Source: Alphaproteobacteria bacterium
GTDB lineage: Bacteria > Pseudomonadota > Alphaproteobacteria > UBA6615
Length of the DNA stretch: 64,000 nucleotides
Direction: 5' to 3'
NCBI GenBank assembly: GCA_021774445.1
Contig: JAJFJA010000056.1
Location: 18,347 to 82,346, forward strand
The stretch's first letter is position 1. The number at the start of each line of letters is the position of its first letter. Shown here piece by piece: positions 10,067-33,269 of this stretch. The notes beneath the pieces are model-generated. The model was not told where the DNA came from. It did not search any database and saw nothing but the letters and a program-made list of their open reading frames with translations. Both the position numbers and the translations under genes were made by a program.

Positions 10067-10156
10067 GCGCTGCCAGTCTGTGGCGGTGGACCAATTTCAG
10101 CGTCGCTCGTGGGGGGCGTCTGCACGTCCCCCACGGCGATCATACAGGCTGTCGCG

Positions 10157-11401: not shown

Positions 11402-11636
11402 TCGTTGTCCTCCCGGTATTCTATGACATCTAGATAGACGAATTGACTGTTATATCTATGAAAGTCTCTAACATTCTGAGCTGCTACGCAACCGTAAATG
11501 CGGCGCTTTTCTGCTCGCCAGCGGGCGCTGACATCGTGTGAAGGGCGCCCAGATAACGGAAAAACTGGCGGCGGGAGAACGTATCTAGCCGAAACACAGG
11601 TTTTGGGTTACTTTCCTACATACGAATGGAGGGCGA

Positions 11637-12815
11637 ATGTACCGAGCGCTTTACGCCTATGCTTGGGATCTCGCAGAAGGAACCGGCGATAGCGTCGCCG
11701 AGACCTTCTTGGGGTTGGGCGTCAATACGATCACCCTGGCTTGCGCCTACCATGCCGGAAAATTCATCCGGCCGCATGGCGCCGCCGGCAAAGTTTACTT
11801 TCCCGAAGATGGCACGGTCTATTTCAGGGCGCGACCGGAGCGGTACGGCAAAATCAAGCCGGTAATCAGTGCGTTAAGTCAGAATCGGGATGTGTTACAA
11901 GAACTGGTCGGGCGCGACGATATCCAGGCGAACGCGTGGGTCGTGCTGCTGCACAATACGCGACTGGGGTCGGCCTATCCCGATGCCGTGGTGCGCAATG
12001 CCTTTGGCGACGGCTACCGATACAGCCTGTGTGCGGCCAATCCCGATGTTCGAGCCTACGCCACCGCGCTTTGTGCCGATTTGAGCGATCGCTACGGAGT
12101 TTCCGGTCTTAGTCTGGAGACGCCGGGATTTCTGCCTTTTCGGCACGGGTTTCACCACGAATTTTCGCTGACGCCGATGAATGCGTGGCAGGAGACGTTG
12201 TTGGCGTTGTGCTTTTGCGATCATTGCAAGGCCGGTGCCGGTGGCGCCGGCATCGATGTGGGTGGCGTACAGTCACGGGTCGCCCAGGCGATCAGCGCCT
12301 ATCTCGAAAGCGACGTCGCGCCGGAGCCGGATATGGCGGCGGCCTGGCTGCTTGCCGATATCGTGGCGGACGGCGACCTGACGGCCTTTCTGCGATGGCG
12401 CTGCGATCAGGTCACCGCGTTAATTCGCGAGATTCGCGATGCCGTTCGCGATGATGCGACCATTGCGGTGATCCCGTCGGTGAATCGGCCAAGCAGCGCG
12501 GCCTGGCTCGAAGGCAGTGACCTGGAGGCGTTGGCGCAAACCGCCGATGTGCTTGAGGTGCCGCTTTACGAGCCGAGCCCGGAGCGGGTGCGAACCGATC
12601 TTTGGGACGTGCGGCGGCGGGTCGGTACCGCCGCGCGTCTGCGCGCGATATTGCGTCCCGGCCCACCCGACGCCAGCAGCGGGGCACAGGTCAAAGCGTG
12701 CGTCGACGCCGTGCGTGCGGCTGGGGTTTCCGACATAGCCTTCTACAACTACGGGCATTTGCGCGAGAGTTCGCTGCATTGGATGCGCGATGCGCTGGCA
12801 GGCGAGGGAAGCTAG
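11637..12815 (+). CDS. Hypothetical protein (unrecognised, possibly a TIM-barrel-like sugar-modifying enzyme)
   Basis: 392-aa ORF with coding-like composition and no motif I can assign. It is the first gene of the plus-strand operon divergent from the ABC transporter genes. Confidence 0.5.
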   Translation: MYRALYAYAWDLAEGTGDSVAETFLGLGVNTITLACAYHAGKFIRPHGAAGKVYFPEDGTVYFRARPERYGKIKPVISALSQNRDVLQELVGRDDIQANAWVVLLHNTRLGSAYPDAVVRNAFGDGYRYSLCAANPDVRAYATALCADLSDRYGVSGLSLETPGFLPFRHGFHHEFSLTPMNAWQETLLALCFCDHCKAGAGGAGIDVGGVQSRVAQAISAYLESDVAPEPDMAAAWLLADIVADGDLTAFLRWRCDQVTALIREIRDAVRDDATIAVIPSVNRPSSAAWLEGSDLEALAQTADVLEVPLYEPSPERVRTDLWDVRRRVGTAARLRAILRPGPPDASSGAQVKACVDAVRAAGVSDIAFYNYGHLRESSLHWMRDALAGEGS

Positions 12816-13594
12816 TGAAACGGTTTGACGACAAGGTGGTGGCGGTCACCGGTGGTGCGGGCGGGATCGGCCGGGCGCTCTGTGCGCGGTTCGCGGCGGA
12901 GGGTGCCCGGGTAGCGGTGGTCGACCGGGACGAAGCCGCCGCAAGGGAGGCAGCAGGCGAGATTGCGGGGGCGATGGCGGTTGCTCTCGACGTGGCGGAT
13001 GCGGACGGTGTCGCGGCAGGCTTTGGCGATGTGGATGCGACACTCGGGCCGGTCGATATCTTGGTGAATAATGCCGGGTTCGTACTCAAGCCAACTCTGG
13101 CAACCATGACGCCCGACGATTGGCAAGCGGAGGTTCAGGGTAATCTTGGCGGCGCCTATCATTGTGCGCGCGTGGTGATACCCGGCATGCAAACAAGGCG
13201 GTCGGGTTGCATCGTCAATATCAGTTCGGTCAACGGACTGCAGGTGTTGGGCCATCCAGCGTATAGCGCTGCCAAGGCCGGGCTGATCAACTTTACGAAG
13301 TCGTTGGCAGTAGAATATGGGCCGGATGGCATTCGGGCGAACGCGGTATGTCCGGGAACGGTGGCGACGCCGGTCTGGTCGGAGCGGGCAGCGCGGCGGC
13401 CGGAGGTTTTCGAGCGGTTGAAACAATGGTATCCGCTCGGCCGAATTGTCGAGCGCGAAGATGTGGCGAAGGCGGTTGCGTTTTTGGCCAGTGACGATGC
13501 GAGCGCGATCACCGGTGCGGTGCTGCCGGTCGATTGCGGGCTGAGCGCGGGCAACCGGGTGATGGCGTCGGAACTGACCTTGGAAGAGTATTAG
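12815..13594 (+). CDS. Short-chain dehydrogenase/reductase (SDR)
   Basis: GTG start overlapping the upstream stop (TAGTG). Rossmann motif VTGGAGGIGRA is present, along with a catalytic YSAAK (YxxxK) motif. Confidence 0.8.
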   Translation: MKRFDDKVVAVTGGAGGIGRALCARFAAEGARVAVVDRDEAAAREAAGEIAGAMAVALDVADADGVAAGFGDVDATLGPVDILVNNAGFVLKPTLATMTPDDWQAEVQGNLGGAYHCARVVIPGMQTRRSGCIVNISSVNGLQVLGHPAYSAAKAGLINFTKSLAVEYGPDGIRANAVCPGTVATPVWSERAARRPEVFERLKQWYPLGRIVEREDVAKAVAFLASDDASAITGAVLPVDCGLSAGNRVMASELTLEEY

Positions 13595-13610
13595 GGAGCG
13601 GAGGGCAGCC

Positions 13611-14678
13611 ATGGCGACCGTCAATCTGCGCGGTCTCGAGAAGAGCTACGGTGCGACCAAGGTGGTGCATGGCGTCGATCTGGAAATCGCCCATGGCGAA
13701 TTCGTCGTTCTGGTGGGGCCGTCCGGCTGCGGGAAATCGACCTTGCTGCGGATGATTGCCGGGTTGGAGGATATTACCGGCGGTGAGCTCTATATCGGCG
13801 GTGCGTTGGCGAACGCGCTGCCGCCGCAAAAACGCAATATCTCCATGGTGTTTCAGAGCTATGCGCTTTATCCGCATATGTCGACCTATAAGAACATCGC
13901 CTACGGACCGCGTATCCGTCATGAGCCGAGCGACGAGATCGACGGCAAGGTGAAGCAAGCGGCCGGTATCCTCAATCTTTTCGATTATCTCGACCGCCTG
14001 CCGAGACAATTGTCCGGCGGACAGCGACAGCGGGTGGCGATGGGACGGGCGATCGTGCGCGATCCCGCGGTGTTTCTGTTCGACGAACCGTTGTCCAACC
14101 TGGACGCAAAACTACGGGTGCAAATGCGCACCGAGATCAGGTCGTTGCATCAGCGTCTCGGCACAACCGTCGTATATGTGACACACGACCAGATCGAGGC
14201 AATGACGATGGCCGACCGTATCGTCGTGCTCGACCATGGCCGGGTGCAGCAGGCCGGACCGCCGCTGGAGCTCTACGACCATCCGGCCAATCTGTTCGTG
14301 GCCGGATTCCTGGGCTCGCCGGCGATGAATCTAATACCGGGGGTCGTCCGCCATGCCGACGGGGCGGTGCATGTCGAAATGAGCGATGGTGCGCGCATCG
14401 ACTTGGCGGGGCAGGATGCCGAAGAGGGCCGGTCGGTAATGCTTGGCGTGCGGCCGGAAGACTATCACTTGACCGGGACCGAGCAGGGGGCCGAGGCGGT
14501 GGTCAGTCTGGTGGAGCCGACCGGCGCCGATACCAATGTCTATGGTCAATTGGGCGGGGCCGAGTTCAGCGCGGTGTTTCACGAACGGCACCCGTTCAAG
14601 CCCGGCGACAAAATACGTCTGCGGCCGGACCCTGATCGGCTGCATCTTTTCGACGCAGATTTAGGACACCGGCTTTAA
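13611..14678 (+). CDS. Sugar ABC transporter ATP-binding protein (MalK/UgpC-like)
   Basis: Walker [10 protein letters not shown], signature LSGGQRQRV, Walker [11 protein letters not shown], plus a C-terminal MalK-type regulatory domain. Confidence 0.9.
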
Positions 14679-14703
14679 AGGCTGCGGGGCAAGCAAGAAT
14701 AGC

Positions 14704-16164
14704 ATGAGCATGATGGATGAGACGGCGGAGACATATGATGTGATATTCCGCGGCGCGCAAATCGTCGACGGAACGGGCGCGGCGCCGTTTGCCGGCGATC
14801 TGGCGATTCGTGGCGACCGGATCGCGGTCATCGCCGCCGCGGGTACGCTAAGCAGGGCCAAGCAAGATATCGACGCAAGCGGACAGGCGATTTCGCCCGG
14901 GTTTATCGACACGCACACCCATGACGACAACGCCGTCCTGATCGCGCCTGAGATGACGCCGAAGGTCAGCCAGGGCGTGACCACCGTGGTCGTGGGCAAT
15001 TGTGGCGTCAGCTTGGCGCCGACCGTGCTGCCGGGGGATCCACCGCCGCCGTTGAACCTACTGGGCAAGCGGGACGATTTTCGCTTCGAGGGTTTTGCCG
15101 ATTATGTGACAGCGGTCGAGCAGGCGCGGCCGGCGGTCAATGTGGTCGGCTTGGTCGGGCATAGCAGTCTGCGCGTCAGCGCCATGGAGCGGGTCGACCG
15201 GCGGGCCAGCACGGCCGAGATTGCGGTGATGCAGGAAGCGTTGGCCGAAGGGCTCGCGGCCGGTGCGGCGGGGTTCAGCACCGGTTTGTACTACAAACCA
15301 AACATGGCGGCCGACATGGACGAAGTCGTGGCCCTGGCGGCGCTGGTCGGCGCCGCCGGCGGCGTGTATGCGACGCATATGCGCGATGAGCATGTGCATG
15401 TCCTCGAGTCCCTCAATGAAACATTCGAGACGGCGCGGCGCGCCGGCACGACGGTGGTCATCTCGCACCATAAATGCTCGGGTCGGGAAAATTGGGGGCG
15501 CAGCCGCGAGACATTGCCGGTCATTGCCGCGGCCGGCGAGAGACAGCCGGTCGGTCTCGATGCCTATCCCTACGCCGCCGGCTCGACGGTGCTCGATGTC
15601 GATCACGTCGACGCGGAAATCCCCATCCTGATCACCTGGTCCGACGCGGTGCCGGAGGCGACCGGGCGCTATCTTGCCGACCTTGCGAAAGACTGGGGCT
15701 GCGATGTGTTCGAGGCGGCGCGCCGTCTGGATCCGGCCGGGGCGATTTATTTTCAGATGGCCGAGGAGGATGTGCGGCGCATCCTGGCGTTTCCCGGAAC
15801 GATGATCGGCTCAGACGGGCTGCCCCATGACAAGCATCCGCATCCACGGTTGTGGGGTACCTTCCCACGGGTAATCGGCCACTATGGCCGGGAGGTCGGG
15901 TTGTTTCCGCTGGAGGTGGCGGTCCATAAGATGACCGGCCTGGCGGCGGAACGGTTCGGTCTGAAGGATCGTGGCGTGCTGCGGGAGGGCGCGTATGCGG
16001 ATCTTGTGATGTTCGATCCGGTGGCGATTATCGACACCGCGACTTTCGAAGCGCCGGTGCAACCGGCACACGGCATATCTTTGGTGATGGTAAATGGTGT
16101 CGCCGCCTGGCGAGACGGCGCCGCCGGAGATCGAGCGGGCCGGTTTTTGCGCCGTGGGTCGTGA
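14704..16164 (+). CDS. N-acyl-D-amino-acid deacylase family amidohydrolase (D-aminoacylase-like)
   Basis: 486 aa with the metal-binding DTHTHDD motif near the N-terminus, an amidohydrolase fold and a C-terminal beta domain. Confidence 0.75.
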   Translation: MSMMDETAETYDVIFRGAQIVDGTGAAPFAGDLAIRGDRIAVIAAAGTLSRAKQDIDASGQAISPGFIDTHTHDDNAVLIAPEMTPKVSQGVTTVVVGNCGVSLAPTVLPGDPPPPLNLLGKRDDFRFEGFADYVTAVEQARPAVNVVGLVGHSSLRVSAMERVDRRASTAEIAVMQEALAEGLAAGAAGFSTGLYYKPNMAADMDEVVALAALVGAAGGVYATHMRDEHVHVLESLNETFETARRAGTTVVISHHKCSGRENWGRSRETLPVIAAAGERQPVGLDAYPYAAGSTVLDVDHVDAEIPILITWSDAVPEATGRYLADLAKDWGCDVFEAARRLDPAGAIYFQMAEEDVRRILAFPGTMIGSDGLPHDKHPHPRLWGTFPRVIGHYGREVGLFPLEVAVHKMTGLAAERFGLKDRGVLREGAYADLVMFDPVAIIDTATFEAPVQPAHGISLVMVNGVAAWRDGAAGDRAGRFLRRGS

Positions 16165-16249: not shown

Positions 16250-17071
16250 TTAGCTGAAGAGCTGCAGGACGGACTGTTCGGACTGTCCGGCGAAAGCGAG
16301 GGCCTGGACACCCAACTGCTGCCGGGTCTGCAGGGCGACGAGATTGGCGCCTTCCTCGTTGATGTCGGCGAGGGTTAGCTTGCCGGCACCTTCTTCCAGC
16401 GTGTTCACGTAGGACTTGGTGAAGTCCAAGCGGGTCTGGAGCAGAGCGACACGAGAACCCAGGGACTGGGCATTGCCGCGCAGCGTGCTAACCGCGGTGG
16501 CGAGCTGGGTCAGAGCGGCATCGACAATACTGCCAGCGCTGAAGTTAGCGGCCGATGATATGCTCAAACCGGTTGAGGCGGTGCGCAGGTCAATCGAGTT
16601 GATGGTCAGAACGCTGGTCGAGGAGGTGCCGAATTCAACGGTCAATGTGGTGCCGGTGCCATTGACCAGGTTGTTGCCCTGATAGACCGCGTCTCCGGCC
16701 AGGTTGTCGATTTGCGTCTTCAACTCATTATACTGGGTGACGATCGCCGCCAATTCCGTGCCGGTCGCCGATTTGGCGCCGATGGCGATACCCTTCATCT
16801 GCTTGACGATGGAATCGATGGAATTGACGGTGTCGAGGGTTACCTTGACCGAGCTGATGGCCTGATCGATGCCGTCCTTCTTTTCGGCAATGTCGAAGGC
16901 GCGGTCGCTGAGGGCCTTGGCCTCGAAGAAGGCGCGACCGTCGTCGAGGGGACTGGCGACACGCAGGCCGGTCGAAAGACGGCCCTGGGTGCGCGAGATC
17001 AGATCCTGGGTTCCCTGCAGCGCGAGGAGATTGGTTCGGACTGCTGCTGTGAGTTGGATATCACCGGCCAT
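16250..17071 (-). CDS. fliC: Flagellin (paralog 1, about 273 aa short alphaproteobacterial type)
   Basis: N-terminal axial motif NRLSTGLRV-like (RLSTGLRVASPLDDGRAFFEAK) and C-terminal LVALQTRQQLGVQALAFAGQSEQSVLQLFS. Start set at MAGDIQ by alignment with the paralogs. Confidence 0.9.
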   Translation of the reverse strand: MAGDIQLTAAVRTNLLALQGTQDLISRTQGRLSTGLRVASPLDDGRAFFEAKALSDRAFDIAEKKDGIDQAISSVKVTLDTVNSIDSIVKQMKGIAIGAKSATGTELAAIVTQYNELKTQIDNLAGDAVYQGNNLVNGTGTTLTVEFGTSSTSVLTINSIDLRTASTGLSISSAANFSAGSIVDAALTQLATAVSTLRGNAQSLGSRVALLQTRLDFTKSYVNTLEEGAGKLTLADINEEGANLVALQTRQQLGVQALAFAGQSEQSVLQLFS

Positions 17072-17130
17072 TTTTGGCACCTTTCCATTCTGAACGTCGA
17101 GGCCGACCGAGCCGGCTCAAGGGTCATAGA

Positions 17131-17146
17131 GCAACAGGCGTGCCAA
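17131..17146 (-). promoter_or_regulatory. Sigma-54 (-24/-12) promoter for flagellin 1
   Basis: The minus strand reads TTGGCACGCCTGTTGCT, i.e. TGGCACG-N4-TTGCT, which matches the consensus exactly. It lies about 60 nt upstream of the start codon. Confidence 0.6.
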
Positions 17147-17254
17147 CTTGAAAATTCGGCTAAAAACCACGTTAAATCAGATACTTGCAGTCTTGTTGTT
17201 GGTTGTTTCTCGGGCCTTGGGTCCGATGCTGCCCGGCAAGAGAGACCCCAATTG

Positions 17255-17305
17255 CGGCAAACCTTGCCGGGAACGGGCAAGGGTTTGGCGGCAAAGGTTG
17301 CCGGG
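17255..17305. promoter_or_regulatory. Array of dyad sites CGGCAAA-NN-TTGCCGG (enhancer-like, FlbD/ftr-type) upstream of the flagellin 1 sigma-54 promoter
   Basis: CGGCAAACCTTGCCGGG (17255-17271), inverted degenerate copy GGGCAAGGGTTTGGC (17275-17289), CGGCAAAGGTTGCCGGG (17289-17305). A half-site CCCGGCAAG lies at 17232-17240. Confidence 0.5.
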
Positions 17306-17365
17306 ACACGGTTGATCGGTCCGGCGATGGGAACCACCGGGCGATCAGTTGGGCGTGGAGATGGC

Positions 17366-17403
17366 TTGGAAAGAAATGGGGGGGAGGGCGCGTGGCCCCC
17401 CCC
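17366..17403 (-). terminator. Intrinsic terminator downstream of flagellin 2
   Basis: G7/C8 hairpin (gggggggagggcgcgtggcccccccc) followed on the minus-strand RNA by AUUUCUUUCC. Confidence 0.55.
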
Positions 17404-17429
17404 AGGTAACTTCGTACGACTTCGGACGA

Positions 17430-18248
17430 CTACTGGAAGAGAGATAGAACCGATTGCTCGGACTGACCGGCAAAGGCGAGGGCGGAAATACCGAGTTGCT
17501 GTCTTGTCTGCAGCGATACCAGGTTGGCCCCTTCCTCATTGATGTTGGCCAGGGTGAGCTTGCCGGCGCCTTCCTCCAAGTCATTTACATAGGCACCCGT
17601 AAAGTCCAGGCGAACTTGCAGCAACGCGACGTTTGAGCCGAGCGAGGACGCATTGCCTCGCAGGGTGGTAATCGCCGTATTCAACTGCGTGATCGCCGCA
17701 TCAACAACACTGGTAGCACTGAAATTGGCCGCCGAAGTAATGGCGAGACCAGTACTGCCAGTTTGCAGGTTAACCGCGCTAATGGACAAGATACTGGTGC
17801 TGACCGTGCCGAACGAAACGTCCAGCGTGGTGGTCGTGTTGTTCACCAGGTTCAATCCCTGATAGCTGGCGTCGCCTGCGAGGTTGTTGATTTGTGTGCG
17901 AAGCGAGTTGTATTGGCTCACGATTGCGGTTAGTTCCGAGCCCGTGGCGGACTTGGCGCTGATCGCGAGCCCCTTTAACTGCCGCACCAGCGTGTCTACT
18001 GCCTCAACTGCTTCGAGGGCAGTTTTCACGGAGCTGATACCTTGGTCGATGCCGTCTTTCTTTTCAGCGAAATCGGAGGCGCGGTCGGCAAGCGACTTCG
18101 CCTCGAAGAACGCCTTCGAGTCGTCAATCGGGCTGGAAACCCGAAGACCAGTGGATAGACGATTTTGGGTCTTGTCGATCAAGGATTGAGTCTTGCCCAG
18201 TGTTAGCAGGTTGGCACGAACGGCGGCATTCAAGGTTATTTCAGCCAT
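17430..18248 (-). CDS. fliC: Flagellin (paralog 2)
   Basis: MAEITLNAAVRANLL N-terminus, NRLSTGLRVSSPIDDSKAFFEAK, C-terminal QTRQQLGISALAFAGQSEQSVLSLFQ. Confidence 0.9.
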   Translation of the reverse strand: MAEITLNAAVRANLLTLGKTQSLIDKTQNRLSTGLRVSSPIDDSKAFFEAKSLADRASDFAEKKDGIDQGISSVKTALEAVEAVDTLVRQLKGLAISAKSATGSELTAIVSQYNSLRTQINNLAGDASYQGLNLVNNTTTTLDVSFGTVSTSILSISAVNLQTGSTGLAITSAANFSATSVVDAAITQLNTAITTLRGNASSLGSNVALLQVRLDFTGAYVNDLEEGAGKLTLANINEEGANLVSLQTRQQLGISALAFAGQSEQSVLSLFQ

Positions 18249-18307
18249 GATTTCTGTCCTCATTCTGAAGTGGCTATTACAAGAGCTTCTGCTCCGACGA
18301 GGACTGC

Positions 18308-18322
18308 AGCAATTATCGGGCC
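18308..18322 (-). promoter_or_regulatory. Sigma-54-like promoter for flagellin 2
   Basis: The minus strand reads TGGCCCGATAATTGCTG, with GG-N10-GC spacing. Confidence 0.45.
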
Positions 18323-18410
18323 ATTATTTTATTGAGCTATTTCATATGGTTATGCTCTTTCTTGGCCCCTGGCGATGGAAAGAATGTGCTGGCTAGGAAA
18401 TATTTGCCGG

Positions 18411-18440
18411 ACAAAAAAAGGGGGGCCGAAGCCCCCCTTA
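18411..18440 (-). terminator. Intrinsic terminator downstream of flagellin 3
   Basis: Minus-strand RNA reads GGGGGGC-UUCG-GCCCCCC followed by U9. The plus strand reads acaaaaaaaggggggccgaagcccccc. Confidence 0.75.
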
Positions 18441-18466
18441 AGGATACGTTCAGATGGAATCCGGGT

Positions 18467-19288
18467 TTACCGGAAGAGTGACAACACCGACTGCTCGGAC
18501 TGGCCGGCGAAGGCGAGGGCGGAGATACCCAACTGCTGCCTTGTCTGCAGCGATACCAGGTTGGCACCTTCCTCGTTGATGTCGGCGAGGGTGAGCTTGC
18601 CGGCACCTTCTTCGAGGCCATTCACATAGGACTTGGTGAAGTCCAAACGAGCTTGAAGCAAAGCGACGTTGGAACCGAGCGAAGACGCGTTGCCTCGCAA
18701 GGTGGTGATCGCCGTGTCCAACTGAGTAATAGCCGCGTCGACAAGGCTGGTCGCGCTGAAGTTAGCGGCAGACGTAACAGAGAGGCCACCAACGGTGTTG
18801 GTCCGCAGATCAACGGCAGTGATGGACAGAGTACTCGTGGTCGCCGTGCCGAAGGAGACAGCCAGGGTCGACGTGGTGTTGTTGACCAGGTTGAGACCCT
18901 GATAACTGGCGTCACCGGCCAGGTTGTCGATCTGGGTCCGCAAGGAGTTGTACTGGCTGACGATGGACGTCAACTCAGTGCCGCTCGCGGATTTGGCGCT
19001 GATGGCCAGACCTTTGAGCTGGCGAACCAGCGTATCGACGGCCTCAACGGCCTCGAGGGCAGTTTTAACCGAGCTGATACCCTGATCGATACCGTCCTTT
19101 TTCTCGGAGAAATCCGAGGCGCGGTCGCTGAGCGACTTGGCCTCGAAAAACGCCTTCGAATCGTCAATCGGGCTGGAAACCCGAAGGCCGGTGGACAGAC
19201 GGTTCTGAGTTTTATCGATAAGGGATTGGGTGTTGCTGAGGGTCAACAGGTTCGACCGCACAGCGGCATTAAGGGTAATTTCAGCCAT
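18467..19288 (-). CDS. fliC: Flagellin (paralog 3)
   Basis: 273 aa. The N- and C-terminal domains are essentially identical to paralog 4 and the central domain diverges. Confidence 0.9.
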   Translation of the reverse strand: MAEITLNAAVRSNLLTLSNTQSLIDKTQNRLSTGLRVSSPIDDSKAFFEAKSLSDRASDFSEKKDGIDQGISSVKTALEAVEAVDTLVRQLKGLAISAKSASGTELTSIVSQYNSLRTQIDNLAGDASYQGLNLVNNTTSTLAVSFGTATTSTLSITAVDLRTNTVGGLSVTSAANFSATSLVDAAITQLDTAITTLRGNASSLGSNVALLQARLDFTKSYVNGLEEGAGKLTLADINEEGANLVSLQTRQQLGISALAFAGQSEQSVLSLFR

Positions 19289-19360
19289 TATTAGTGGTCC
19301 TCATTCTGAAGGTAAGTTATTGGAGCTTCTGCTCCAGACTAGTTCTGGAAATCCGGCGGT

Positions 19361-20206
19361 TTACCGGAAGAGCGACAACACCGACTGCTCGGACTGACCG
19401 GCGAAGGCGAGGGCGGAGATACCCAGCTGCTGCCTTGTCTGCAGCGACACCAGGTTGGCACCTTCCTCGTTGATGTCGGCGAGGGTGAGCTTGCCGGCAC
19501 CTTCTTCGAGGCCATTCACATAGGATTTGGTGAAGTCCAGGCGGGCCTGGAGCAGGGCGACGTTGGAACCGAGCGAAGACGCGTTGCCTCGCAAGGTGGT
19601 GATCGCCGTGTCCAATTCCGTAATCGCCGCGTCAGCGCCGCTTGCGGTGCTGAAATCGATCTCGCCCGTGGTCGTCGCAGAGGCGGCGGCCAGTGTAACA
19701 GCGAGCCCGGCACTACCCGCCTGTAGGTTCACCGCTGCAATGGACAGGGTACTGGTGGTCGCCGTCCCGAAGGAGACGGCCAGGGTCGACGTGGTGTTGT
19801 TGACCAGGTTGAGACCCTGATAGCTGGCGTCACCGGCCAGATTGTCAATCTGGGTGCGGAGAGAGTTGTACTGAGAGACAATGGAGGTCAACTCCGTACC
19901 AGTCGCGGATTTGGCGCTGATGGCCAGACCCTTGAGCTGGCGAACCAGCGTGTCGACGGCCTCGACGGCTTCAAGAGCCGTTTTGACCGAGCTGATGCCC
20001 TGATCGATACCGTCCTTTTTCTCGGAGAAATCCGATGCCCGGTCGCTCAGCGACTTGGCCTCGAAGAACGCCTTCGAATCGTCGATCGGGCTGGCAACTC
20101 GCAGACCGGTAGACAGACGGTTTTGGGTTTTGTCGATAAGGGATTGGGTGTTGCTGAGGGTCAATAGGTTCGACCGCACAGCCGCGTTGAGGGTAATTTC
20201 TGCCAT
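19361..20206 (-). CDS. fliC: Flagellin (paralog 4, with a central insertion)
   Basis: The track ORF starts at MRSQGM, and the alignment-based start is MAEITL. The central segment AAASATTTGEIDFSTASGADAAITELDTAITTLRG is inserted relative to paralog 3. Confidence 0.9.
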   Translation of the reverse strand: MAEITLNAAVRSNLLTLSNTQSLIDKTQNRLSTGLRVASPIDDSKAFFEAKSLSDRASDFSEKKDGIDQGISSVKTALEAVEAVDTLVRQLKGLAISAKSATGTELTSIVSQYNSLRTQIDNLAGDASYQGLNLVNNTTSTLAVSFGTATTSTLSIAAVNLQAGSAGLAVTLAAASATTTGEIDFSTASGADAAITELDTAITTLRGNASSLGSNVALLQARLDFTKSYVNGLEEGAGKLTLADINEEGANLVSLQTRQQLGISALAFAGQSEQSVLSLFR

Positions 20207-20266
20207 ACCTTGGCTCCTCATTCTGAAGGACTATGTGACGGAGCTTCTGCTCCGGCCCGACTTGCT

Positions 20267-20282
20267 GCAATCGAGAGGCCAA
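20267..20282 (-). promoter_or_regulatory. Sigma-54-like promoter for flagellin 4
   Basis: The minus strand reads TGGCCTCTCGATTGCAG, with GG-N10-GC spacing. Confidence 0.45.
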
Positions 20283-20334: not shown

Positions 20335-20392
20335 TGCAATTTGTGCCGATTTTTCTAGGCAAATTTTGCCGCCGATAGGCAAGATTTGCCGG
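20335..20392. promoter_or_regulatory. Array of three GGCAA-N3-TTGCC dyad sites upstream of the flagellin 4 promoter
   Basis: TGCAATTTGTGCC (20335-20347, degenerate), GGCAAATTTTGCC (20358-20370), GGCAAGATTTGCC (20378-20390). Confidence 0.45.
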
Positions 20393-20474: not shown

Positions 20475-21314
20475 TCAGGCGAATAAGTTGAGAACCGAGC
20501 CTGGGTCTATTTCTTGTTTGAAAACCGTGTACTGAGAAATGTAGGCCGTTATCGACTGGGCGATTTCGAAGGAGAGCGAGAGAGCGGTCAAGATTCGCGC
20601 GAATTGCTCTTTCTTCTTTTCGATCTCGTCGATATTTTCGATCTGCGCGCCTAGTTGTATCGCTGAGATGTCCGATTCGAGGTCGGCAATCTTTTCACTG
20701 GTGTTCTGCGACAGGTTAAATCCAGCATCTTCATTGATGCGGGTTATTTCGAGGGTAACGCCGAAACTCGCGGAAAGGCCGTTGAGCGTGGCCTGAACGG
20801 CGGAAATATCGCCGCCGGTGGCGAAGTTATTGTGCACCAGCGCGTTGAGCTGTGCCACCGCGTCCGCCTTAAGCTTCCGCAAACCATCGGGGGCGCCAAA
20901 GCGCTCGAAAACCGGCGTATCCAGCTTTTCGATGTCGGCGATGGCCGAGGCCAGGCGGGAATCGAATTCGGCGACGGTCGATGGATCGGCCAGGGCAATC
21001 AGGTCGGTAAAAGCGGCGATCGTCGTTTCGGTGGTGACGCGATTGCTCTTGGTGCGCGCGGCATAGGCGTCGATGTCGGCAACGTCCCGCTTCAGGCGGG
21101 TGACGTTAATGTCTAGCAGCGCCGTAGCGCCGCTGGTGTTCTTTTCCTGCTGGAGATCCAGGATCTCCTTGTCCAGGCGCTTTAGGACAGTTTCCTGAGT
21201 GATACTGAACTGGAGCTCGAAGGCCGGGCCCGAGGCGAGCTGGGACAGTCTTACGAACTGTTCGGCCACGGAAATCGTGTCGAAACTGCTCTTTAAGCCT
21301 GGAATGGTCGCCAT
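20475..21314 (-). CDS. Hypothetical coiled-coil protein with a flagellar axial-protein-like C-terminus (orphan, between flgL and the flagellin array)
   Basis: 279 aa. The C-terminus ITAYISQYTVFKQEIDPGSVLNLFA parallels the flagellin (SVLSLFR) and FlgL (LSLLNFLN) termini, but the N-terminus is not a canonical flagellin D0 segment. Confidence 0.55.
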   Translation of the reverse strand: MATIPGLKSSFDTISVAEQFVRLSQLASGPAFELQFSITQETVLKRLDKEILDLQQEKNTSGATALLDINVTRLKRDVADIDAYAARTKSNRVTTETTIAAFTDLIALADPSTVAEFDSRLASAIADIEKLDTPVFERFGAPDGLRKLKADAVAQLNALVHNNFATGGDISAVQATLNGLSASFGVTLEITRINEDAGFNLSQNTSEKIADLESDISAIQLGAQIENIDEIEKKKEQFARILTALSLSFEIAQSITAYISQYTVFKQEIDPGSVLNLFA

Positions 21315-21396
21315 GATCGTGAGCTGTCCGAGTTTGCGAAACCGTACGAGCCTGACACCTCCAGAGTTAAGGCGGTGTTAAGCGCGGGCTAAGTCG

Positions 21397-22590
21397 CTAG
21401 TTGAGGAAATTGAGCAATGACAAGGATTGGATCCGCGAAATGGTTGAATACGAGGCTTGAAGCTGAACTTGATCAGACTGCAGGCGGGCGACGACTTCGG
21501 CGGTATTGATGTTCTGGATGTCGCCGATAATCTCCGCTGCATAGATGTTGTATTGCTCGTGTCGGCCCTGCACGTTCTTAAGGGTGATACGAGGGCCGTT
21601 GAGTTCGATCCGTAAATCAGTCAGACCGTCGATGCCGTTGGTCACATCGACGCCGAGGATGTTGTCGATGATATCCCGGGCCTTTTTGACAAGGACCTGG
21701 CCATCGGGCGTGGCAATCGACGCCTGAGGCAGGTTGGCGATGGCATCGACCGCGGTAATCAGTTGTTGGAAAGCGACCTCGTTGGCGGAGACGCCATATT
21801 TGATCTCAAAGCTTTCGTCGATTCTGGCAGCACTTTGGACGTTGTCGCCCTGGTAGTAATCGAGCTTCGGATTTGCCATCATTTGGCTCGAATTGAGACG
21901 GTCGACGTAATAGCTGAAGAGGTTCGGATCCTCGGCCTTGAACTCAGCCAGCGTCGGGTTGTTCAAATCGGCCGGGACCGGCACCGTAGGCAGGACACCG
22001 TTCTTTTCGAAGTAGATCTGTTGATAAAAACTGCCTTGCGCGTAGGGCAAAGTGTTGCCGAGCACGTTGGTGTAGTAGGACTGGTAGAAGGTCTCGTCGA
22101 CAGTGTTGGCGTCGCTCTCGATGAGCTTGACCGGCGTGTAGGTGCCGGCGGCGAAGGTCACGGGGGCGCGATCGACGCGGCCGCCGGCAAAGAGATAGCG
22201 GGTGCCGTCGCGGGCGTTCAAGGACTCGCCGACCAACGAAAGCGTGTTGGTGGCGAGGTCGACCATATCGGCGAGATGGGACTCGGGACCGTCGAGCGAG
22301 GCATTCAACAGTTTGCGCATCTCAGTGGCCAAGGTCTCAGTACTCTCCATGCTGATATCCATCAAGGAGAGGCGCTGTTCGACGGTGTTGATATTGTCGA
22401 TGAATTGATTGGTCCGGCCCACCGTCGCCTCGGTGGAAACCAGGCGGCTGGCGCTCTGATAGATGCCGGAATATTGCTGGGCGACAACACCGGTGCTGAG
22501 CTGAGTCTGCAGATCAAACATCTGCCGCTGCTGATTCAGGGTGTTGAACAGGATCATCTGTTGCTGGGCGTATGGCGCAACGCGAGTCAT
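21397..22590 (-). CDS. flgL: Flagellar hook-associated protein 3 FlgL
   Basis: 397 aa. N-terminus QQRQMFDLQTQLSTGVV, and flagellin-like C-terminal helix ARLQSDQVQLQASYSTISRIQSLSLLNFLN. Confidence 0.85.
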   Translation of the reverse strand: MTRVAPYAQQQMILFNTLNQQRQMFDLQTQLSTGVVAQQYSGIYQSASRLVSTEATVGRTNQFIDNINTVEQRLSLMDISMESTETLATEMRKLLNASLDGPESHLADMVDLATNTLSLVGESLNARDGTRYLFAGGRVDRAPVTFAAGTYTPVKLIESDANTVDETFYQSYYTNVLGNTLPYAQGSFYQQIYFEKNGVLPTVPVPADLNNPTLAEFKAEDPNLFSYYVDRLNSSQMMANPKLDYYQGDNVQSAARIDESFEIKYGVSANEVAFQQLITAVDAIANLPQASIATPDGQVLVKKARDIIDNILGVDVTNGIDGLTDLRIELNGPRITLKNVQGRHEQYNIYAAEIIGDIQNINTAEVVARLQSDQVQLQASYSTISRIQSLSLLNFLN

Positions 22591-22601: not shown

Positions 22602-24659
22602 TTAACGGACGGCGTTCATGAGAATATCCATCATCTCAGTCACCGCGGTGGTGACACGGGCAGCCGCCTGATAAGCGTTCTGCAAGATGATAATGTTGGA
22701 CATCTCTTCATCGATGTTGACCTGGCTGATGCCGGCGGCCTGTGTGGTCAGCGCCTGGCTGTAGGCCTGGTTGATCTCCAGATCACGGGAAATGTTGGCC
22801 GCGGTGGTCGCATTGACCGACATGATGCTGGCGGCGTAGTCGGCCAAACGTGTGGTCGTTGCGGCGAGTCCGCCGGCTTTGGCCAGGGCGAGGTCGCCGG
22901 CGAAGACGCCGGCGATCGCCTGGGCGGCCTTGCCACTGCCGGCGGAGACGGCAACAGTGCCGACGGCGAGCGTCGCGGCGCCGCTAAGCTCACCGCCGGC
23001 GAATTGGTTGGGATCGTTGGCGATACCGGTGGTGACGGCGAGCCGATTGGCGATCCCCGGCGTGCCGGAGCGTACATTCAAGGTACTGGTCAGGGTCGAG
23101 GAGTCGGTGAAGAAGAAATTATTGCCGTCGGCGTCCGAGATGTTCAGGCGGAAGCCGCTAGCCTCCTGAATCACGGTGGCGGTGATGTTCTGGGCGGCCA
23201 TGGCCCCGGTGATTGCCGTGGCAACGGCGGTCAGGCTGTCGCCGACATTGTAAGCAACCGCCGTCGAGCCGCCGGGATAGGCGACGGTGAGGGTGCCGGC
23301 GAGGCCCAAAGCGGCCGTGGCACTGACTTGGCGGTCGGTCTGGTAGGTCGAATAACCGTTACCGGTCGAGAAGAAATCGTTGAGGCCGAGGAACTGCGCC
23401 ATGCCCATGGTCTGAGACCCGGTGGTGACGGCGCTGGTCATTTCGTTAACAGCGATCTTGTTGCCGCCGGTGGCCGTGAGCACGACTTTGCCCTGGGCGT
23501 TGATACTGGCGGTCGCGTTGGCCATGCCGTTGAGCGTGGTGACCAGCTGACCGATGGTGGAGGGCACCAGGGCGGCCAGATTGATGTCCAGGTTCTCGAC
23601 CACAAGGCCGTTGCCGTCGACCACCGTGGCGCGGAAGCTGCCGGTCATCGACGGGGCGTCCGTGGCGGCGACGGTCGTCGCGCCGGTCAGAGACGTGGGT
23701 GGCGGGAACGCAGTACCGTCATTGTGGGCGGCGTTGACGCTGCTGGCCATGACTTCGCCCAGACGGTCGAGCTCAGCCTGCAGATTGACGAGATCGGTGT
23801 CGCGCAGATCGGCTAGGGCACGAAGGCTGCCGTCGCGCAGTTCTGAGGTAATGTCGACACCGCTGGCGCCGATCGATATCGGGCCGATGCCGCTGGGATA
23901 GGTGATCTGGGCGGACATCTGCGAAACCGGGGTGTGCACCAGCTGGACCGTGGTGTTCTCGACCAGTTGCCGCCCGCTCTCGGTAAATACGATTACCCGG
24001 CCATCGTCCCGGGTGAAGTATTTGATGTCGACGTCCTTGGCGAGTTGATCCAGTGCCTTGTCGCGATTGTCGATGAGGTCCGCCGCGGGTTTGCCGAGGG
24101 CCTTCGAGACGGCGATCTGACCGTTGAGGTCGTTGATTAGGGTTAGCTGGTCGTTAATTCTGGAGACCGTCTCGCTGATCTGCTTGTCGGCTTCCTGGCG
24201 CATTTTCTGCACTTCGTCCGACATGAACTGAAGCTGGTTGGTCAATCGAATGGCTTGATTGACAACATCACTGCGCGCGGACTGGCTTTCCGGGGTCGTG
24301 GATAGGGACTCCAGGGCGGCACCAAGATCGGTGACGGCGTGGGACAAATCACCATTGTTTTCCAAGGTGCCGAACAGCTGCTGCATACGCGAGTAGTAGG
24401 TATCCTGGGCAGACAAGCCGGAAAGCTTGGACAATTGATCACGAACCTGCAGCAGCAGATTCTCATCAACCGAGCGCCGGATCTCAGTCAGACGGACGCC
24501 GCTGGATTCGCCGTTGACGATCTGGTTGGTCTGGCCAACCGTCTTGCGGGTATAGCCCTCGGTGTTGGCATTGGCGACGTTGTTCGACGTGACCTGGAAT
24601 GCGGCCTGTGTCGTTTGCAGGGCAGCCAGCGCCGAATAGAGGGAGACGGTCAAAGACAT
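22602..24659 (-). CDS. flgK: Flagellar hook-associated protein 1 FlgK
   Basis: 685 aa. N-terminus SLYSALAALQTTQAAFQVTSNNVANANTEGYTRK, and C-terminal NIIILQNAYQAAARVTTAVTEMMDILMN. Confidence 0.9.
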   Translation of the reverse strand: MSLTVSLYSALAALQTTQAAFQVTSNNVANANTEGYTRKTVGQTNQIVNGESSGVRLTEIRRSVDENLLLQVRDQLSKLSGLSAQDTYYSRMQQLFGTLENNGDLSHAVTDLGAALESLSTTPESQSARSDVVNQAIRLTNQLQFMSDEVQKMRQEADKQISETVSRINDQLTLINDLNGQIAVSKALGKPAADLIDNRDKALDQLAKDVDIKYFTRDDGRVIVFTESGRQLVENTTVQLVHTPVSQMSAQITYPSGIGPISIGASGVDITSELRDGSLRALADLRDTDLVNLQAELDRLGEVMASSVNAAHNDGTAFPPPTSLTGATTVAATDAPSMTGSFRATVVDGNGLVVENLDINLAALVPSTIGQLVTTLNGMANATASINAQGKVVLTATGGNKIAVNEMTSAVTTGSQTMGMAQFLGLNDFFSTGNGYSTYQTDRQVSATAALGLAGTLTVAYPGGSTAVAYNVGDSLTAVATAITGAMAAQNITATVIQEASGFRLNISDADGNNFFFTDSSTLTSTLNVRSGTPGIANRLAVTTGIANDPNQFAGGELSGAATLAVGTVAVSAGSGKAAQAIAGVFAGDLALAKAGGLAATTTRLADYAASIMSVNATTAANISRDLEINQAYSQALTTQAAGISQVNIDEEMSNIIILQNAYQAAARVTTAVTEMMDILMNAVR

Positions 24660-24685: not shown

Positions 24686-25135
24686 TTACAGAGTCTGGTT
24701 TACCGACAAGGGCAGCGATGCGCCGGCCTTGCGAGTGTTGGTGAGGCGCCCATCGGGCCGGTAGGTGCCGGCGGCTCTGATTTGCTGCTCTTGCGCGGCT
24801 TCCGCGACGGCTTGTGCCAACCGCTGATTGGCCACCGTTGCGGCATGCAGGGCGAGAATATTTCGGGTCGCGGTCTGTTCGAGTCGCGTCGCGACGGCGC
24901 GTAACTCGGCGATGCGGCTATGGTCGAGCTTCTGCAGGGGATCGGGAAATTGCCGCAGGTCCGAGACGGCCTGCTCGTAAGCTGCCGCAACGGAGGCCTT
25001 CTTGACCTGGATGTCGCCAACTTCGCCGGTGCGCATTTCATCGAGCAAGCCGGACTCCTCATCGATGACGTCGGCAAGCTCAATGGTGGCGCGGATTAGG
25101 GATTCCGTTCGCCAGGTGGGGCTGACTTGGGTCAT
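24686..25135 (-). CDS. FlgN-like flagellar export chaperone candidate (hypothetical)
   Basis: 149-aa helical protein located between the flgJ-like gene and flgK, and translationally coupled to them by ATGA overlaps. The assignment rests on position and size only. Confidence 0.4.
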   Translation of the reverse strand: MTQVSPTWRTESLIRATIELADVIDEESGLLDEMRTGEVGDIQVKKASVAAAYEQAVSDLRQFPDPLQKLDHSRIAELRAVATRLEQTATRNILALHAATVANQRLAQAVAEAAQEQQIRAAGTYRPDGRLTNTRKAGASLPLSVNQTL

Positions 25136-25458
25136 GGCTGGGCCTGCTCTTGTAGCTGAAGGATTTCGCGGACAACGGAGTCGGCAATGCCGATCCCGCC
25201 GTTCTGGGCCAGGGCCTTGCCGTATTCCTGGCCCAGCATGGACCGGAACAGGGTCTCACCGGGGCCGCCGCCGAAAACGGGGTCGGTTTGCACATCGGCC
25301 ATCATGTAGTTGACCATCTGGGTCAGAAAAAACGCCTCAAAGTCTTGCGCGGTTTGTTGCGCATCGGCGGCGGCGGCCGGGTTGATGCGCGCCAAGGGGT
25401 TGACGCCTTGCTGCAACGTCGTGGTCACGCTCGAGAGGCTTGAATCGGGGGTCATCAC
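25132..25458 (-). CDS. flgJ: Flagellar rod-binding protein (FlgJ N-terminal-domain-like)
   Basis: 108 aa containing AQDFEAFFLTQMVNYMM...GGGPGETLFRSMLGQEYGKALAQNGGIGIADSV, which matches the rod-binding domain pattern. Confidence 0.8.
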   Translation of the reverse strand: MMTPDSSLSSVTTTLQQGVNPLARINPAAAADAQQTAQDFEAFFLTQMVNYMMADVQTDPVFGGGPGETLFRSMLGQEYGKALAQNGGIGIADSVVREILQLQEQAQP

Positions 25459-26600
25459 ATCACCTCGAGTTCGGCTTGCAGAGCGCCCGCGGCCTTGACC
25501 GTCTGCAGGATCGCGATCATGTCGCGCGGTCCGATGCCGAGCGCGTTCAAGCCGTCAACCAATTCCTGCAACGTTACGCCGGCAGGAACTATCGCAAGGC
25601 GTTCGCCGTCGTCCTCTTCCACCTCGATATCCGTGCGGGGTACGACTGTCGTCGTGCCGGCGTCGGAAAATGCATTCGGCTGACTCACTTGCGGGGTTTC
25701 GGTGATGCGGATTGTGAGGTTGCCTTGGGCCACCGCGACGGTGCTGAGGCGAACATTCTCACCCATCACGATGACGCCGGATTGCTCGTCGATCACGACT
25801 CTGGCGAGCTGGTCAGGCGTTACCCGCAGCTGCTCGATGTCGGTCATTAGTCCGACGACATTGCCGACCCGATTCGCCGGGACCGGGACCTCGACGGTGG
25901 CTGGGTTGACTGCGGCGGCACCGGAACCGCCGATGAGGGCGTTGATCGACTGGGCGATCCGCCGCGCGGTCGTGAAATCGGGATTGCGCAGATTGAGGCG
26001 GACGCGGGTTAGGGAATCCAAGTCGAAGCCGAGCTCGCGCTCGACGATGGCGCCGTTTGGCAGGCGGCCTGCCGTTGGTACGCCTTTGACGATGGTTTGA
26101 CCATCGCCGGAAGCGGTGAAGCCGTTGACCACGATCTGACCTTGGGAGACGGCGTAGACTTCGCCATCGGCGCCCAGCATCGGGGTCACCAACAAGGTGC
26201 CGCCGAGCAAGCTTTTGGCATCGCCGAGGGCGCTAACGGCCACGTCAATGCGTTTACCCTGGCCGGAGAATGGCGGCAGCGTGGCCGTGACCATAACGGC
26301 GGCGATGTTCTTGGTTTTGAGATTGGCGAGTTCGTCGCGGGTGTTCACGCCCAGGCGCTCGAGCATGCCGATTAGGCTCTGCTGGGTGAAAGGCGCGTTG
26401 TCGAGGGTGTCGCCGCTGCCGCTGAGGCCGACTACCAGGCCATAACCGACCAGCAGGTTGTCGCGGACACCCTCGAAATCGACGATGTCCTTGATCCGAG
26501 TCTGGGCGCTCGCGGCCGGTACGACAGCGCTGGATAGCGCGGCGACGGCCAGCCAAAGGGCCACTCTGCGGCAAACTTTCTGTATCTGGTGTCTGTTCAT
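25455..26600 (-). CDS. flgI: Flagellar P-ring protein FlgI
   Basis: Signal peptide, then IKDIVDFEGVRDNLLVGYGLVVGLSGSGD. Start chosen at MNRHQIQ (26598-26600). Confidence 0.9.
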   Translation of the reverse strand: MNRHQIQKVCRRVALWLAVAALSSAVVPAASAQTRIKDIVDFEGVRDNLLVGYGLVVGLSGSGDTLDNAPFTQQSLIGMLERLGVNTRDELANLKTKNIAAVMVTATLPPFSGQGKRIDVAVSALGDAKSLLGGTLLVTPMLGADGEVYAVSQGQIVVNGFTASGDGQTIVKGVPTAGRLPNGAIVERELGFDLDSLTRVRLNLRNPDFTTARRIAQSINALIGGSGAAAVNPATVEVPVPANRVGNVVGLMTDIEQLRVTPDQLARVVIDEQSGVIVMGENVRLSTVAVAQGNLTIRITETPQVSQPNAFSDAGTTTVVPRTDIEVEEDDGERLAIVPAGVTLQELVDGLNALGIGPRDMIAILQTVKAAGALQAELEVM

Positions 26601-26647
26601 TTGATCCGTGCTGTTCGCCAATGGGCTGCCTGCCCGGGGTTGGAGAA

Positions 26648-26663
26648 GCGAGAATCGTGCCAA
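26648..26663 (-). promoter_or_regulatory. Sigma-54-like promoter for the flgI operon
   Basis: The minus strand reads TGGCACGATTCTCGCT (TGGCACG matches exactly, and the -12 element is TCGC rather than TTGC). An ftr-like half-dyad CCCGGCAAGTCCTACCGGG lies at 26748-26766. Confidence 0.4.
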
Positions 26664-32856: not shown

Positions 32857-32918
32857 GCGCAGCGCCGGCCGTTGATCGAACTCGTTACCGGCGCTCGCTT
32901 ATTGTTTCGGATGACGGT

Positions 32919-33269
32919 CTAAAAATCGGCGGCCAATGCTTGTACGCAGGCGCTCGCCACGCCGCGGTCGGGATCGGCCGACCCGGGCATGGTGGCCCAG
33001 CCGGTCTTCATCAGCATGTCTCGGCGCTGGTAGCTGGCAGCGCCTTTCAGCTCGGCAAGTGTTGCAACCAATAGCGGATCTTGCTTTGACTGCTGGATGC
33101 AAACCGGCACCAAGGCCGCAACGACCTCAGCTTTGGCTTGGTCGGACGCCATTTTCTGGGCCGTTCCGCCGGTTACCCATCCCCCCCATGAGAAGCCGAG
33201 GATGGCAAGAGCTATAGCGCCGACACCCGCGCCGTAAAGACCGGGTTTTAGCCACTGGGGTATTTTCAT
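32919..33269 (-). CDS. Hypothetical small membrane protein
   Basis: 116 aa with an N-terminal TM segment (GAGVGAIALAILGFSWGGW). No recognised motif. Confidence 0.4.
   Translation of the reverse strand: MKIPQWLKPGLYGAGVGAIALAILGFSWGGWVTGGTAQKMASDQAKAEVVAALVPVCIQQSKQDPLLVATLAELKGAASYQRRDMLMKTGWATMPGSADPDRGVASACVQALAADF

Follow-up and report, generated by a model that had tools for sequence, protein, structure and literature searches.

Within a 64,000-nucleotide stretch of contig JAJFJA010000056.1 from an alphaproteobacterium of the UBA6615 lineage, referred to here as the window, the minus-strand gene at 20475-21314 encodes a flagellin-like protein of 279 amino acids (aa), labelled X, that lies between flgL and an array of four flagellin genes. 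It is suggested, with belief and doubt in roughly equal measure, that X is an exported and highly diverged member of the superfamily of flagellins and hook-associated proteins, which would be produced ahead of the bulk flagellins and act as a minor component of the filament or as a checkpoint component. The observations behind this suggestion are the conservation of the X family, its genomic linkage, its predicted fold, its composition and a dichotomy between its promoters and those of the flagellins; on these grounds it is proposed that X is homologous to flagellin, is exported, and would have the binding partners, location and checkpoint role described below. More tentatively, and by analogy, X could be the functional counterpart of Caulobacter FljJ, that is, a first late substrate that would prime the filament or serve as a checkpoint. 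The gene and its conserved elements are as follows.

20475-21314, minus strand: X coding sequence, 279 aa, stop included, supported by the open reading frame (ORF) listing, homologues and AlphaFold models
20481-20504, minus strand: codons for PGSVLNLF (residues 271-278), the most conserved element of the family, resembling flagellin QSVLSLFR
20565-20579, minus strand: codons for SLSFE (residues 246-250), near-invariant, at the end of the long C-terminal helix
21207-21230, minus strand: codons for GPAFELQF (residues 29-36), a conserved N-terminal helix motif with consensus RPxFELQFxxxQN, unlike flagellin NRLSTGLR

The X family and its flagellar context

The X reading frame starts with ATG, ends in ...SITAYISQYTVFKQEIDPGSVLNLFA (also given as ...KQEIDPGSVLNLFA) and has a G+C content at third codon positions of 0.72, in line with the neighbouring genes. 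An earlier sequence-only reading of the window had described X as an orphan, which does not hold: a first search returned 102 homologues, all of 264-303 aa save one fragment of 184 aa and none with a Pfam domain, and an exhaustive profile search extended the family to about 200 representatives when clustered at 50% identity, of which 142 had E<=1e-10. Nearly all members are 270-290 aa long and the family is single-copy; a profile-based word search yielded almost nothing new over the 102 homologues, and a tblastn search of 72,556 plasmids found no homologue of X. The genome matches, obtained with a profile from which one frameshifted member that broke a conserved block had been left out, are all to metagenome-assembled genomes, under the labels Rhodospirillales, Kiloniellales/Kiloniellaceae, Magnetovibrio, Rhodospirillaceae or Alphaproteobacteria. 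The family is uncharacterised and as yet has neither a name nor a Pfam or NCBIfam model.

Conservation is greatest at the termini and extends over both terminal helices, beyond the C-terminal tag alone. The conserved blocks are RPxFELQFxxxQN (29-41), TALL, LADPxTVAEFD, GAPDGLRxxK, HNNFAT, ISLSFE (245-250) and PGSVLNLF (271-278), the last being the best-conserved window of eight residues (3.38 bits per column vs a mean of 1.70). Between genomes, X shows about 42-45% identity, FlgL 46-50% and flagellin about 65%.

Every copy of X that was examined lies in a late-flagellar or flagellin-glycosylation locus of Rhodospirillales/Kiloniellales-type alphaproteobacteria. Closer relatives share the gene order flgI, rod-binding gene, FlgN-like gene, flgK, flgL, X, flagellin(s) and FlmG-like gene (tetratricopeptide repeat, TPR, plus GT41), although a flagellin sits between flgL and X in two lineages. 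In distant relatives (about 20-30% identity), X is found beside genes for FlmG-like, Maf, NeuB, FlaF, FlbT or flagellin proteins, and genes for both FlbT and FlaF occur in loci that carry an X homologue. A search for homologues, which the sequence-only reading had proposed as a check, places X in flagellar loci of all lineages examined, with the order flgL-X-flagellin in the closer relatives. The length of X stays at about 272-286 aa even where the local flagellins are 360-503 aa long, so X does not simply track flagellin.

The composition of the family is equally distinctive. Across the alignment of 105 members that was used for the Pfam and composition tests, cysteine is absent (0/105), tryptophan is missing from almost every member and accounts for 0.04% and histidine for 0.5% of residues, and asparagine, glutamine, serine and threonine are enriched. 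This bias is the same as that of flagellins and FlgL and differs from that of 23 background proteins of the window. Within the same loci FlgK, FlgL and most flagellins have neither cysteine nor tryptophan, whereas the cytoplasmic FlbT, FlaF and FlmG-like proteins have one or both. No Sec-type hydrophobic N-terminus was seen on inspection of the X sequence. To judge by these residue frequencies, X is probably of the exported, axial type.

In the window, X is the sixth of ten genes in a co-directional minus-strand run, separated by 82 bp from flgL and by 253 bp from the first flagellin gene. The genes that define this context are listed below.

25455-26663, minus strand: flgI, same run as X
25132-25458, minus strand: 108-aa gene with a rod-binding domain, same run as X
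24686-25135, minus strand: FlgN-like gene, same run as X
22602-24659, minus strand: flgK (hook-associated protein 1, HAP1), with homologues carrying FlgK Pfam domains
21397-22590, minus strand: flgL (HAP3, hook-filament junction protein), directly upstream of X, with TIGR02550 and PRK08913 matches
16250-20221, minus strand: array of four flagellin genes downstream of X (19361-20221, 18467-19288, 17430-18263 and 16250-17080)
5198-7177, minus strand: FlmG-like flagellin glycosyltransferase gene (TPR + GT41), homologues of which adjoin X in distant lineages

The gene at 25132-25458 is FlgJ-like and consists of the 108-aa rod-binding domain only, with no muramidase domain, an arrangement also reported in Rhizobiaceae.

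Relation of X to flagellin in sequence and predicted fold

The sequence-only reading had noted that the C-terminus of X parallels those of the axial proteins encoded beside it, and the ends of the reading frames bear this out: the four flagellins end in SVLSLFR, SVLSLFR, SVLSLFQ and SVLQLFS, and FlgL in LSLLNFLN. When 331 ORFs from 20 related loci were searched for S[VI]L.[LI][FLI] followed by 0-2 residues at the C-terminus, the 32 matches were X homologues and flagellins only, and the likeness between the two therefore goes beyond chance. The same reading had also noted that the canonical N-terminal axial motif is missing from X, where the family consensus is RPxFELQF and not the NRLSTGLR of flagellin, and that X is not FlaF, FlbT, FliD or FlaG, since it has no Pfam or NCBIfam match. 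In particular, models for FlaF, FlbT, FlaG, FliS and FlgN (PF07309, PF07378, PF03646, PF02561 and PF05130) matched neither X nor the 105 aligned members, and these proteins, at 110-170 aa vs 279 aa, are also unlike X in composition.

A weak similarity to flagellin, below formal significance, reaches further than the tag. When a hidden Markov model (HMM) of the X family was compared with the 331 locus ORFs, flagellins were the top matches outside the family; these matches were below threshold, but they were co-linear over up to about 190 positions, aligning X 67-256 with flagellin 51-264 and pairing ISLSFE with flagellin ISSLSFAG. The best segment in profile-profile comparison with hhalign places helix 3 of X on the ND1b helix of flagellin at identical residue numbers, and does so in two independent comparisons. 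Real flagellins scored a mean of 5.3 bits with the X HMM, vs 0.9 for reversed and -4.3 for shuffled sequences, and their maximum was reached by 0/720 shuffles.

The predicted fold is consistent with such a relation. An AlphaFold2 model of X from a 50-sequence alignment has a mean predicted local distance difference (pLDDT) score of 80.3, with low confidence at both termini, and helices at 16-57, 61-107, 111-129, 145-157 and 167-264. A second model, of a member 24% identical to X (P0254; 106-sequence alignment), reached a pLDDT of 94.2 and a predicted template modelling (pTM) score of 0.73 and shows the same helix plan. Both models are essentially all-helical rods; the second also has a handful of isolated beta-bridge residues. 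The core of X is proposed to be helical and D0-D1-like, with no outer domains. The order and lengths of the helices fit the flagellin plan of FliC structures, in which ND0, ND1a and ND1b are followed by a hairpin region and CD1 plus CD0. The structure prediction that had been proposed as a check on X gave flagellins and FlgL as the best matches in the PDB for both models, with weak scores: the first ranks in Foldseek are held by Caulobacter FljK, FljL, FljM and FljN, by other outer-domain-free flagellins (Roseburia, Bacillus, Shewanella, Kurthia), the D0-D1 filament cores of the E. coli and P. aeruginosa flagellins and Leptospira, and by Salmonella and Vibrio FlgL (probability 1.0, template modelling score, TM, up to 0.51-0.55, about 270 columns).

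The middle of the protein tolerates insertion. In a small number of members the predicted tip of the rod, between helices 2 and 3, bears a large insert of 95-370 aa built from tandem beta repeats; P0217 and P0211 have four tandem copies of a beta-type repeat about 70 aa long, and P0236 has one. Other members have shorter inserts in the loop region at 130-166. The long-form loci (L024:2912-4900 and L025:289-2250) adjoin flaF or nonulosonic-acid genes, flaF being directly upstream in one. The repeat has a consensus like ...DDxIxAAPGxFxxxxxGDxIxL...GxFxVTxVSxDGSxIxV...DGxDAGF... and appears to be an uncharacterised small beta-type module. Conserved termini around a variable middle that accepts inserts are a hallmark of axial flagellar proteins.

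Several results nevertheless weigh against placing X in this superfamily and giving it the role proposed above. Flagellin_N (PF00669) and Flagellin_C (PF00700) did not match X, in a scan in which a neighbouring flagellin matched Flagellin_N at 7e-16, nor did they match any of the 105 members, even at E<=1; at the C-terminal end, the likeness to flagellin is confined to the six final residues and an ISLSF motif. Scanned against Pfam and NCBIfam, X, its distant and long-form relatives and the 105 aligned members gave no more than scattered coiled-coil noise, with no match to TIGR02550. A sequence search of the PDB with X gave no relative, only spurious haemagglutinin and coiled-coil matches, and the family profile found no flagellin among the PDB sequences. 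The hhalign probabilities were 3.8% against the local alphaproteobacterial flagellins, 0.4% against E. coli FliC and 0.4% against the local FlgL; a positive control, alphaproteobacterial flagellins against FliC, reached 91%, although the first control, flagellin against FlgL, also failed, so the power of the method is low here. The comparison of flagellin scores with those of reversed and shuffled sequences overstates independence, because the flagellins used are mutually related. The Foldseek matches have E-values of about 2e-3 and TM scores mostly of 0.3-0.4, with generic coiled coils close behind, so the fold evidence is consistent and replicated but not decisive. In both models the terminal tag is set off from the long helix by Pro-Gly and a linker of about nine residues; this makes the tag look like a partner-binding peptide, and as modelled it is unlike the continuous CD0 helix of flagellin and also in keeping with a peptide that does no more than mimic flagellin. 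X differs, too, from FljJ, a true flagellin that shares 49% identity with its paralogues, in lying past sequence detection. Finally, in some loci a canonical flagellin follows directly after flgL and could itself be the FljJ equivalent.

On the weak signal in the alignments and scores, it is somewhat more probable than otherwise that X is a very remote homologue of flagellin; it is not a member of the family. The earlier view of X as an axial-type protein is upheld by fold matches, composition and flagellar loci, but not in so far as it would make X a member of the flagellin or FlgL families at the level of sequence.

Promoters and 5' leaders of X and the flagellins

The promoter regions separate X from the flagellins. 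A perfect CtrA-type box lies 52 nt before the ATG of X, within the flgL-X spacer, and is the sole perfect TTAA-N7-TTAA site in the window; a second box, with one mismatch, overlaps it. Across the family, 12 of the 22 loci have a CtrA-type box with at most one mismatch in the 150 bp before X, at a distance of 60-124 nt, where the background rate is 0.035 per 150 bp. Of 19 flagellin genes, 11 have a promoter of the sigma-54 type, placed at -61 to -89, and one has a CtrA-type box, whereas weak sigma-54-like sites were found for only two among 21 X genes, and no sigma-54 promoter was found upstream of X in the window. The CtrA-type promoter of X, set against the sigma-54-type promoters of the flagellins, points to an early, specialised, FljJ-like role for X rather than that of an ordinary filament subunit. 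Dependence on CtrA is itself suggested by the conserved motif. The elements concerned are the following.

21366-21381, minus strand: perfect CtrA-type box TTAACACCGCCTTAAC (TTAA-N7-TTAAC) upstream of X
21377-21392: second, overlapping one-mismatch CtrA-type box upstream of X
17131-17145, minus strand: canonical sigma-54 promoter TGGCACGCCTGTTGC of flagellin 4
18309-18323 and 20267-20281, minus strand: weaker sigma-54 versions at flagellin 3 and flagellin 1, respectively
20240-20253 (flagellin 1), 19322-19335 and 18282-18295, minus strand: palindrome GGAGCAGAAGCTCC in the 5' untranslated region (5'-UTR)
20358-20370, 20378-20390, 17256-17268 and 17290-17302: paired GGCAA-N3-TTGCC palindromes upstream of flagellins 1 and 4
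775-790, 7201-7216, 33394-33543, 38318-38333, 41337-41352, 49053-49068 and 63279-63294: one-mismatch CtrA-type boxes elsewhere in the window

The palindrome GGAGCAGAAGCTCC occurs in the leaders of three of the four flagellins and nowhere else in the window (3 vs 0.57 expected), and thus not upstream of X; it is a candidate translational control element of the FlbT type. Related hairpins, CCGGAGCAGAACGGCTCCG, stand upstream of flagellins in two other loci (L001 and L005). GGCAA-N3-TTGCC matches the window six times, vs 0.39 expected; the pairs before flagellins 1 and 4 stand beside sigma-54-type promoters and are candidate binding sites for an FlbD-like enhancer protein, and X has no such palindrome upstream. 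The fourth flagellin (16250-17080, minus strand) is 72% identical to the reference copy, vs 89-94% for the other two, and it has the only canonical sigma-54 promoter and no 5'-UTR palindrome; from its divergence, its own promoter type and the missing palindrome, it may be separately regulated.

One-mismatch CtrA-type boxes are enriched eight-fold in the window as a whole (17 vs 2.1 expected). They stand upstream of the FlmG-like gene (7201-7216), fliL-fliM, a cheY-like gene and a gene for a protein like the C-terminal part of FlhB, and also in a gene-poor stretch (32857-34276) before dksA.

Some further features of the window lie outside this comparison. A Maf gene at 2781-5135 makes up, with the FlmG-like gene, the glycosylation genes, which an island of about 9 kb (7256-16164) parts from the flagellin array; in related loci the FlmG-like gene comes straight after the flagellins. 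The first gene of the island (7256-8224) encodes a regulator of the RpiR/SIS type by Pfam scan, and the rest, judged by ORF translations alone, consists of apparent sugar ATP-binding-cassette (ABC) transporter components and a possible amidohydrolase. Within the glycosylation island, an ORF of 428 aa (881-2167, plus strand) has no Pfam match. At 43886-47323 (plus strand), after two MotB-plug-like genes in a cheY-cheZ-mot cluster, a TPR / AMIN-like protein of 1145 aa is encoded, which may be a flagellar or stator accessory protein.

Proposed role, alternatives and comparison with known systems

X probably acts early in the building or control of the filament, in flagella that, by analogy with related systems, probably have no FliD. 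With its own CtrA-type promoter, X would be made ahead of the sigma-54-dependent bulk flagellins. It would be exported by the flagellar type III apparatus, as are other axial proteins, a route that would suit a protein with no Sec signal, no cysteine and almost no tryptophan. Its tethered PGSVLNLF tag, which copies the flagellin terminus, probably gives it partners in common with flagellin, namely the secretion chaperone FlaF and possibly FlbT or the TPR domain of FlmG. Once exported, a small number of X subunits may be built into the filament at one of its ends. In the more specific, FljJ-like form of the proposal, a cytoplasmic pool of X would help to restrain flagellin translation until the hook-junction is complete, after which X would form a specialised segment that primes filament growth.

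The main alternative, conceivable albeit unlikely, is that X is the cap or assembly factor (a functional HAP2) of filaments that have no FliD, having evolved from a flagellin-type subunit and not from FliD. Such a protein would be exported just before flagellin, oligomerise on the junction with flagellin-like legs in the filament tip and aid the folding of flagellin; it would be 'headless' in most species and headed by the tandem beta repeats in the long forms, and CtrA timing would have it precede the flagellins. In an Azospirillum cluster (PMC12826043), the slot that X takes after flgK-flgL is the position of fliD. FliD is missing from the FlaF/FlbT-type flagella of Rhizobiaceae (PMC6913195) and of Phaeobacter (PMC11974857), and a model of Caulobacter assembly leaves a slot for an 'unknown assembly factor (X)' (PMC7591256). 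No FliD or FliS domain was found in the Pfam-scanned ORFs of the window or in four loci with precomputed Pfam labels, a survey that covers loci and not whole genomes. X is moreover made before the flagellins, if the promoters are read as above, and has the composition of an exported protein. The head domains of FliD are placed after its second helix, and the inserts of the long forms fall in the same place. However, X has no similarity to FliD (0.05% in hhalign against E. coli FliD), and neither X, the long forms nor the 105 members match FliD_N or FliD_C (PF02465, PF07195). No FliD chain is among the top 50 structural matches. The models are all-helical, and most members have no beta-rich head (D2-D3) from which a lid could be formed. 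The family is also limited to some Rhodospirillales/Kiloniellales lineages, so X cannot account for the other FliD-less alphaproteobacteria. The flagella of Caulobacter are not known to have FliD either.

The tethered tag raises a second possibility, which is less probable than a cap: that X is never secreted and acts as a cytoplasmic decoy or regulator, its C-terminal peptide filling the site at which FlaF, FlbT or the export gate would bind flagellin, and thereby timing the translation or export of flagellin. A shared motif that is a short peptide tethered behind Pro-Gly is what would be expected of such a decoy, the CtrA-type promoter groups X with early and regulatory genes, and flaF and flbT are close by in several loci, including the long-form locus in which flaF is directly upstream. 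Against this, the residue bias over 105 members, with no cysteine and near-zero tryptophan, is the pattern of exported axial proteins and not of FlaF, FlbT or FlmG; the conservation spans both terminal helices and not the tag alone, and large beta-repeat inserts at the tip of the rod are poorly explained.

Proximity to glycosylation genes suggests a third role, as an accessory of flagellin glycosylation in which X is an adaptor or a substrate mimic for the FlmG-like TPR domain or for Maf, and this is very unlikely. In distant lineages X stands directly beside TPR-GT41, Maf or nonulosonic-acid genes, the FlmG-like gene of the window has a CtrA-type box of its own, and the TPR domain of Caulobacter FlmG binds flagellins (PMC7591256). 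Glycosylation islands adjoin flagellins in any case, however, so this adjacency is not specific; in the window and in the closer relatives X comes after flgL and before the flagellins, with the sugar-transport island of about 9 kb intervening in the window, and a role in glycosylation leaves the flagellin-like fold and composition unexplained. It is scarcely credible that X is an unrelated helical protein which travels with flagellar genes and resembles flagellin by convergence or chance for, although every formal homology test fails and long helical proteins give Foldseek matches of similar strength to many coiled coils, flagellins and FlgL come first in the matches of two independent models, the co-linear similarity, albeit sub-threshold, scores above reversed and shuffled controls, no proteins other than X and flagellins share the C-terminal pattern, and an exported axial composition and a strict flagellar context are kept over lineages that share only about 20-25% identity.

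The suggestion that X is a diverged, early axial protein bears on how FlaF/FlbT-type filaments without FliD start and grow, and on how flagellin is coupled to the hook outside Caulobacter. The X family is a tangible candidate for a component specialised for the early filament or for a checkpoint, being flagellin-shaped, probably exported, single-copy and of its own promoter class. If the suggestion is true, flagellin-type subunits can diverge past sequence recognition into new roles, and a family would be added to the annotation of flagella.

A protein of comparable setting is CP1 of the fla1 flagella of Rhodobacterales, which is uncharacterised and whose gene accompanies fliC-flaF-flbT in a FliD-less system; a CP1 mutant still secretes flagellin but forms no filament, as would a cap mutant, and CP1 was not found in the exoproteome (PMC11974857). 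In C. sphaeroides 2.4.1, CP1 is the DUF1217 protein encoded at 6396-7184 of locus L023, in the fliC-flaF-flbT cluster of plasmid pA. CP1 and X are similar in size (262 aa for CP1) but unrelated in sequence, and CP1 contains tryptophan. Identity of X with CP1 was rejected, as hhalign gave 0.1% and no X member matched the DUF1217 Pfam model; no CP1-like sequence was found in the window or the related loci.

With FliD, X shares the slot after flgK-flgL and, in the long forms, helical termini around a variable central insert; it differs in that most members have no head domains and no oligomeric lid is evident. With FlgL, X shares adjacency, flgL being the gene directly upstream, as well as a similar rate of divergence, and Salmonella and Vibrio FlgL are among its best fold matches; the local FlgL, at 396 aa, is longer, and X has no match to TIGR02550.

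The likeness to flagellins is broader. Outer-domain-free flagellins (Caulobacter FljK/L/M/N and Bacillus Hag) have a length of about 275 aa, like X, and flagellins and X have in common a predicted order of helices (N-terminal, long, short return, irregular hairpin region, very long C-terminal), an SVLxLF terminus and an ISLSF motif in the same order, freedom from cysteine and tryptophan, and adjacent genes. X departs from them in having RPxFELQF instead of NRLSTGLR, in some 17 extra residues and Pro-Gly before the terminal motif, and in being single-copy, with a CtrA-type and not a sigma-54-type promoter and with no flagellin 5'-UTR hairpin.

The closest parallel in regulation is found in Caulobacter, where CtrA drives basal-body genes, flmG and the regulatory flagellin gene fljJ (PMC7591256). 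Of the flagellins, only FljJ binds FlbT; it is made and exported ahead of the others and forms no filament by itself; its secretion, aided by FlaF, lifts the translational repression of the other flagellins (PMC7591256). Like FljJ, X is predicted to be of flagellin type, is encoded among the flagellin genes and may, from its promoter motif, be under CtrA-type control, unlike the structural flagellins.

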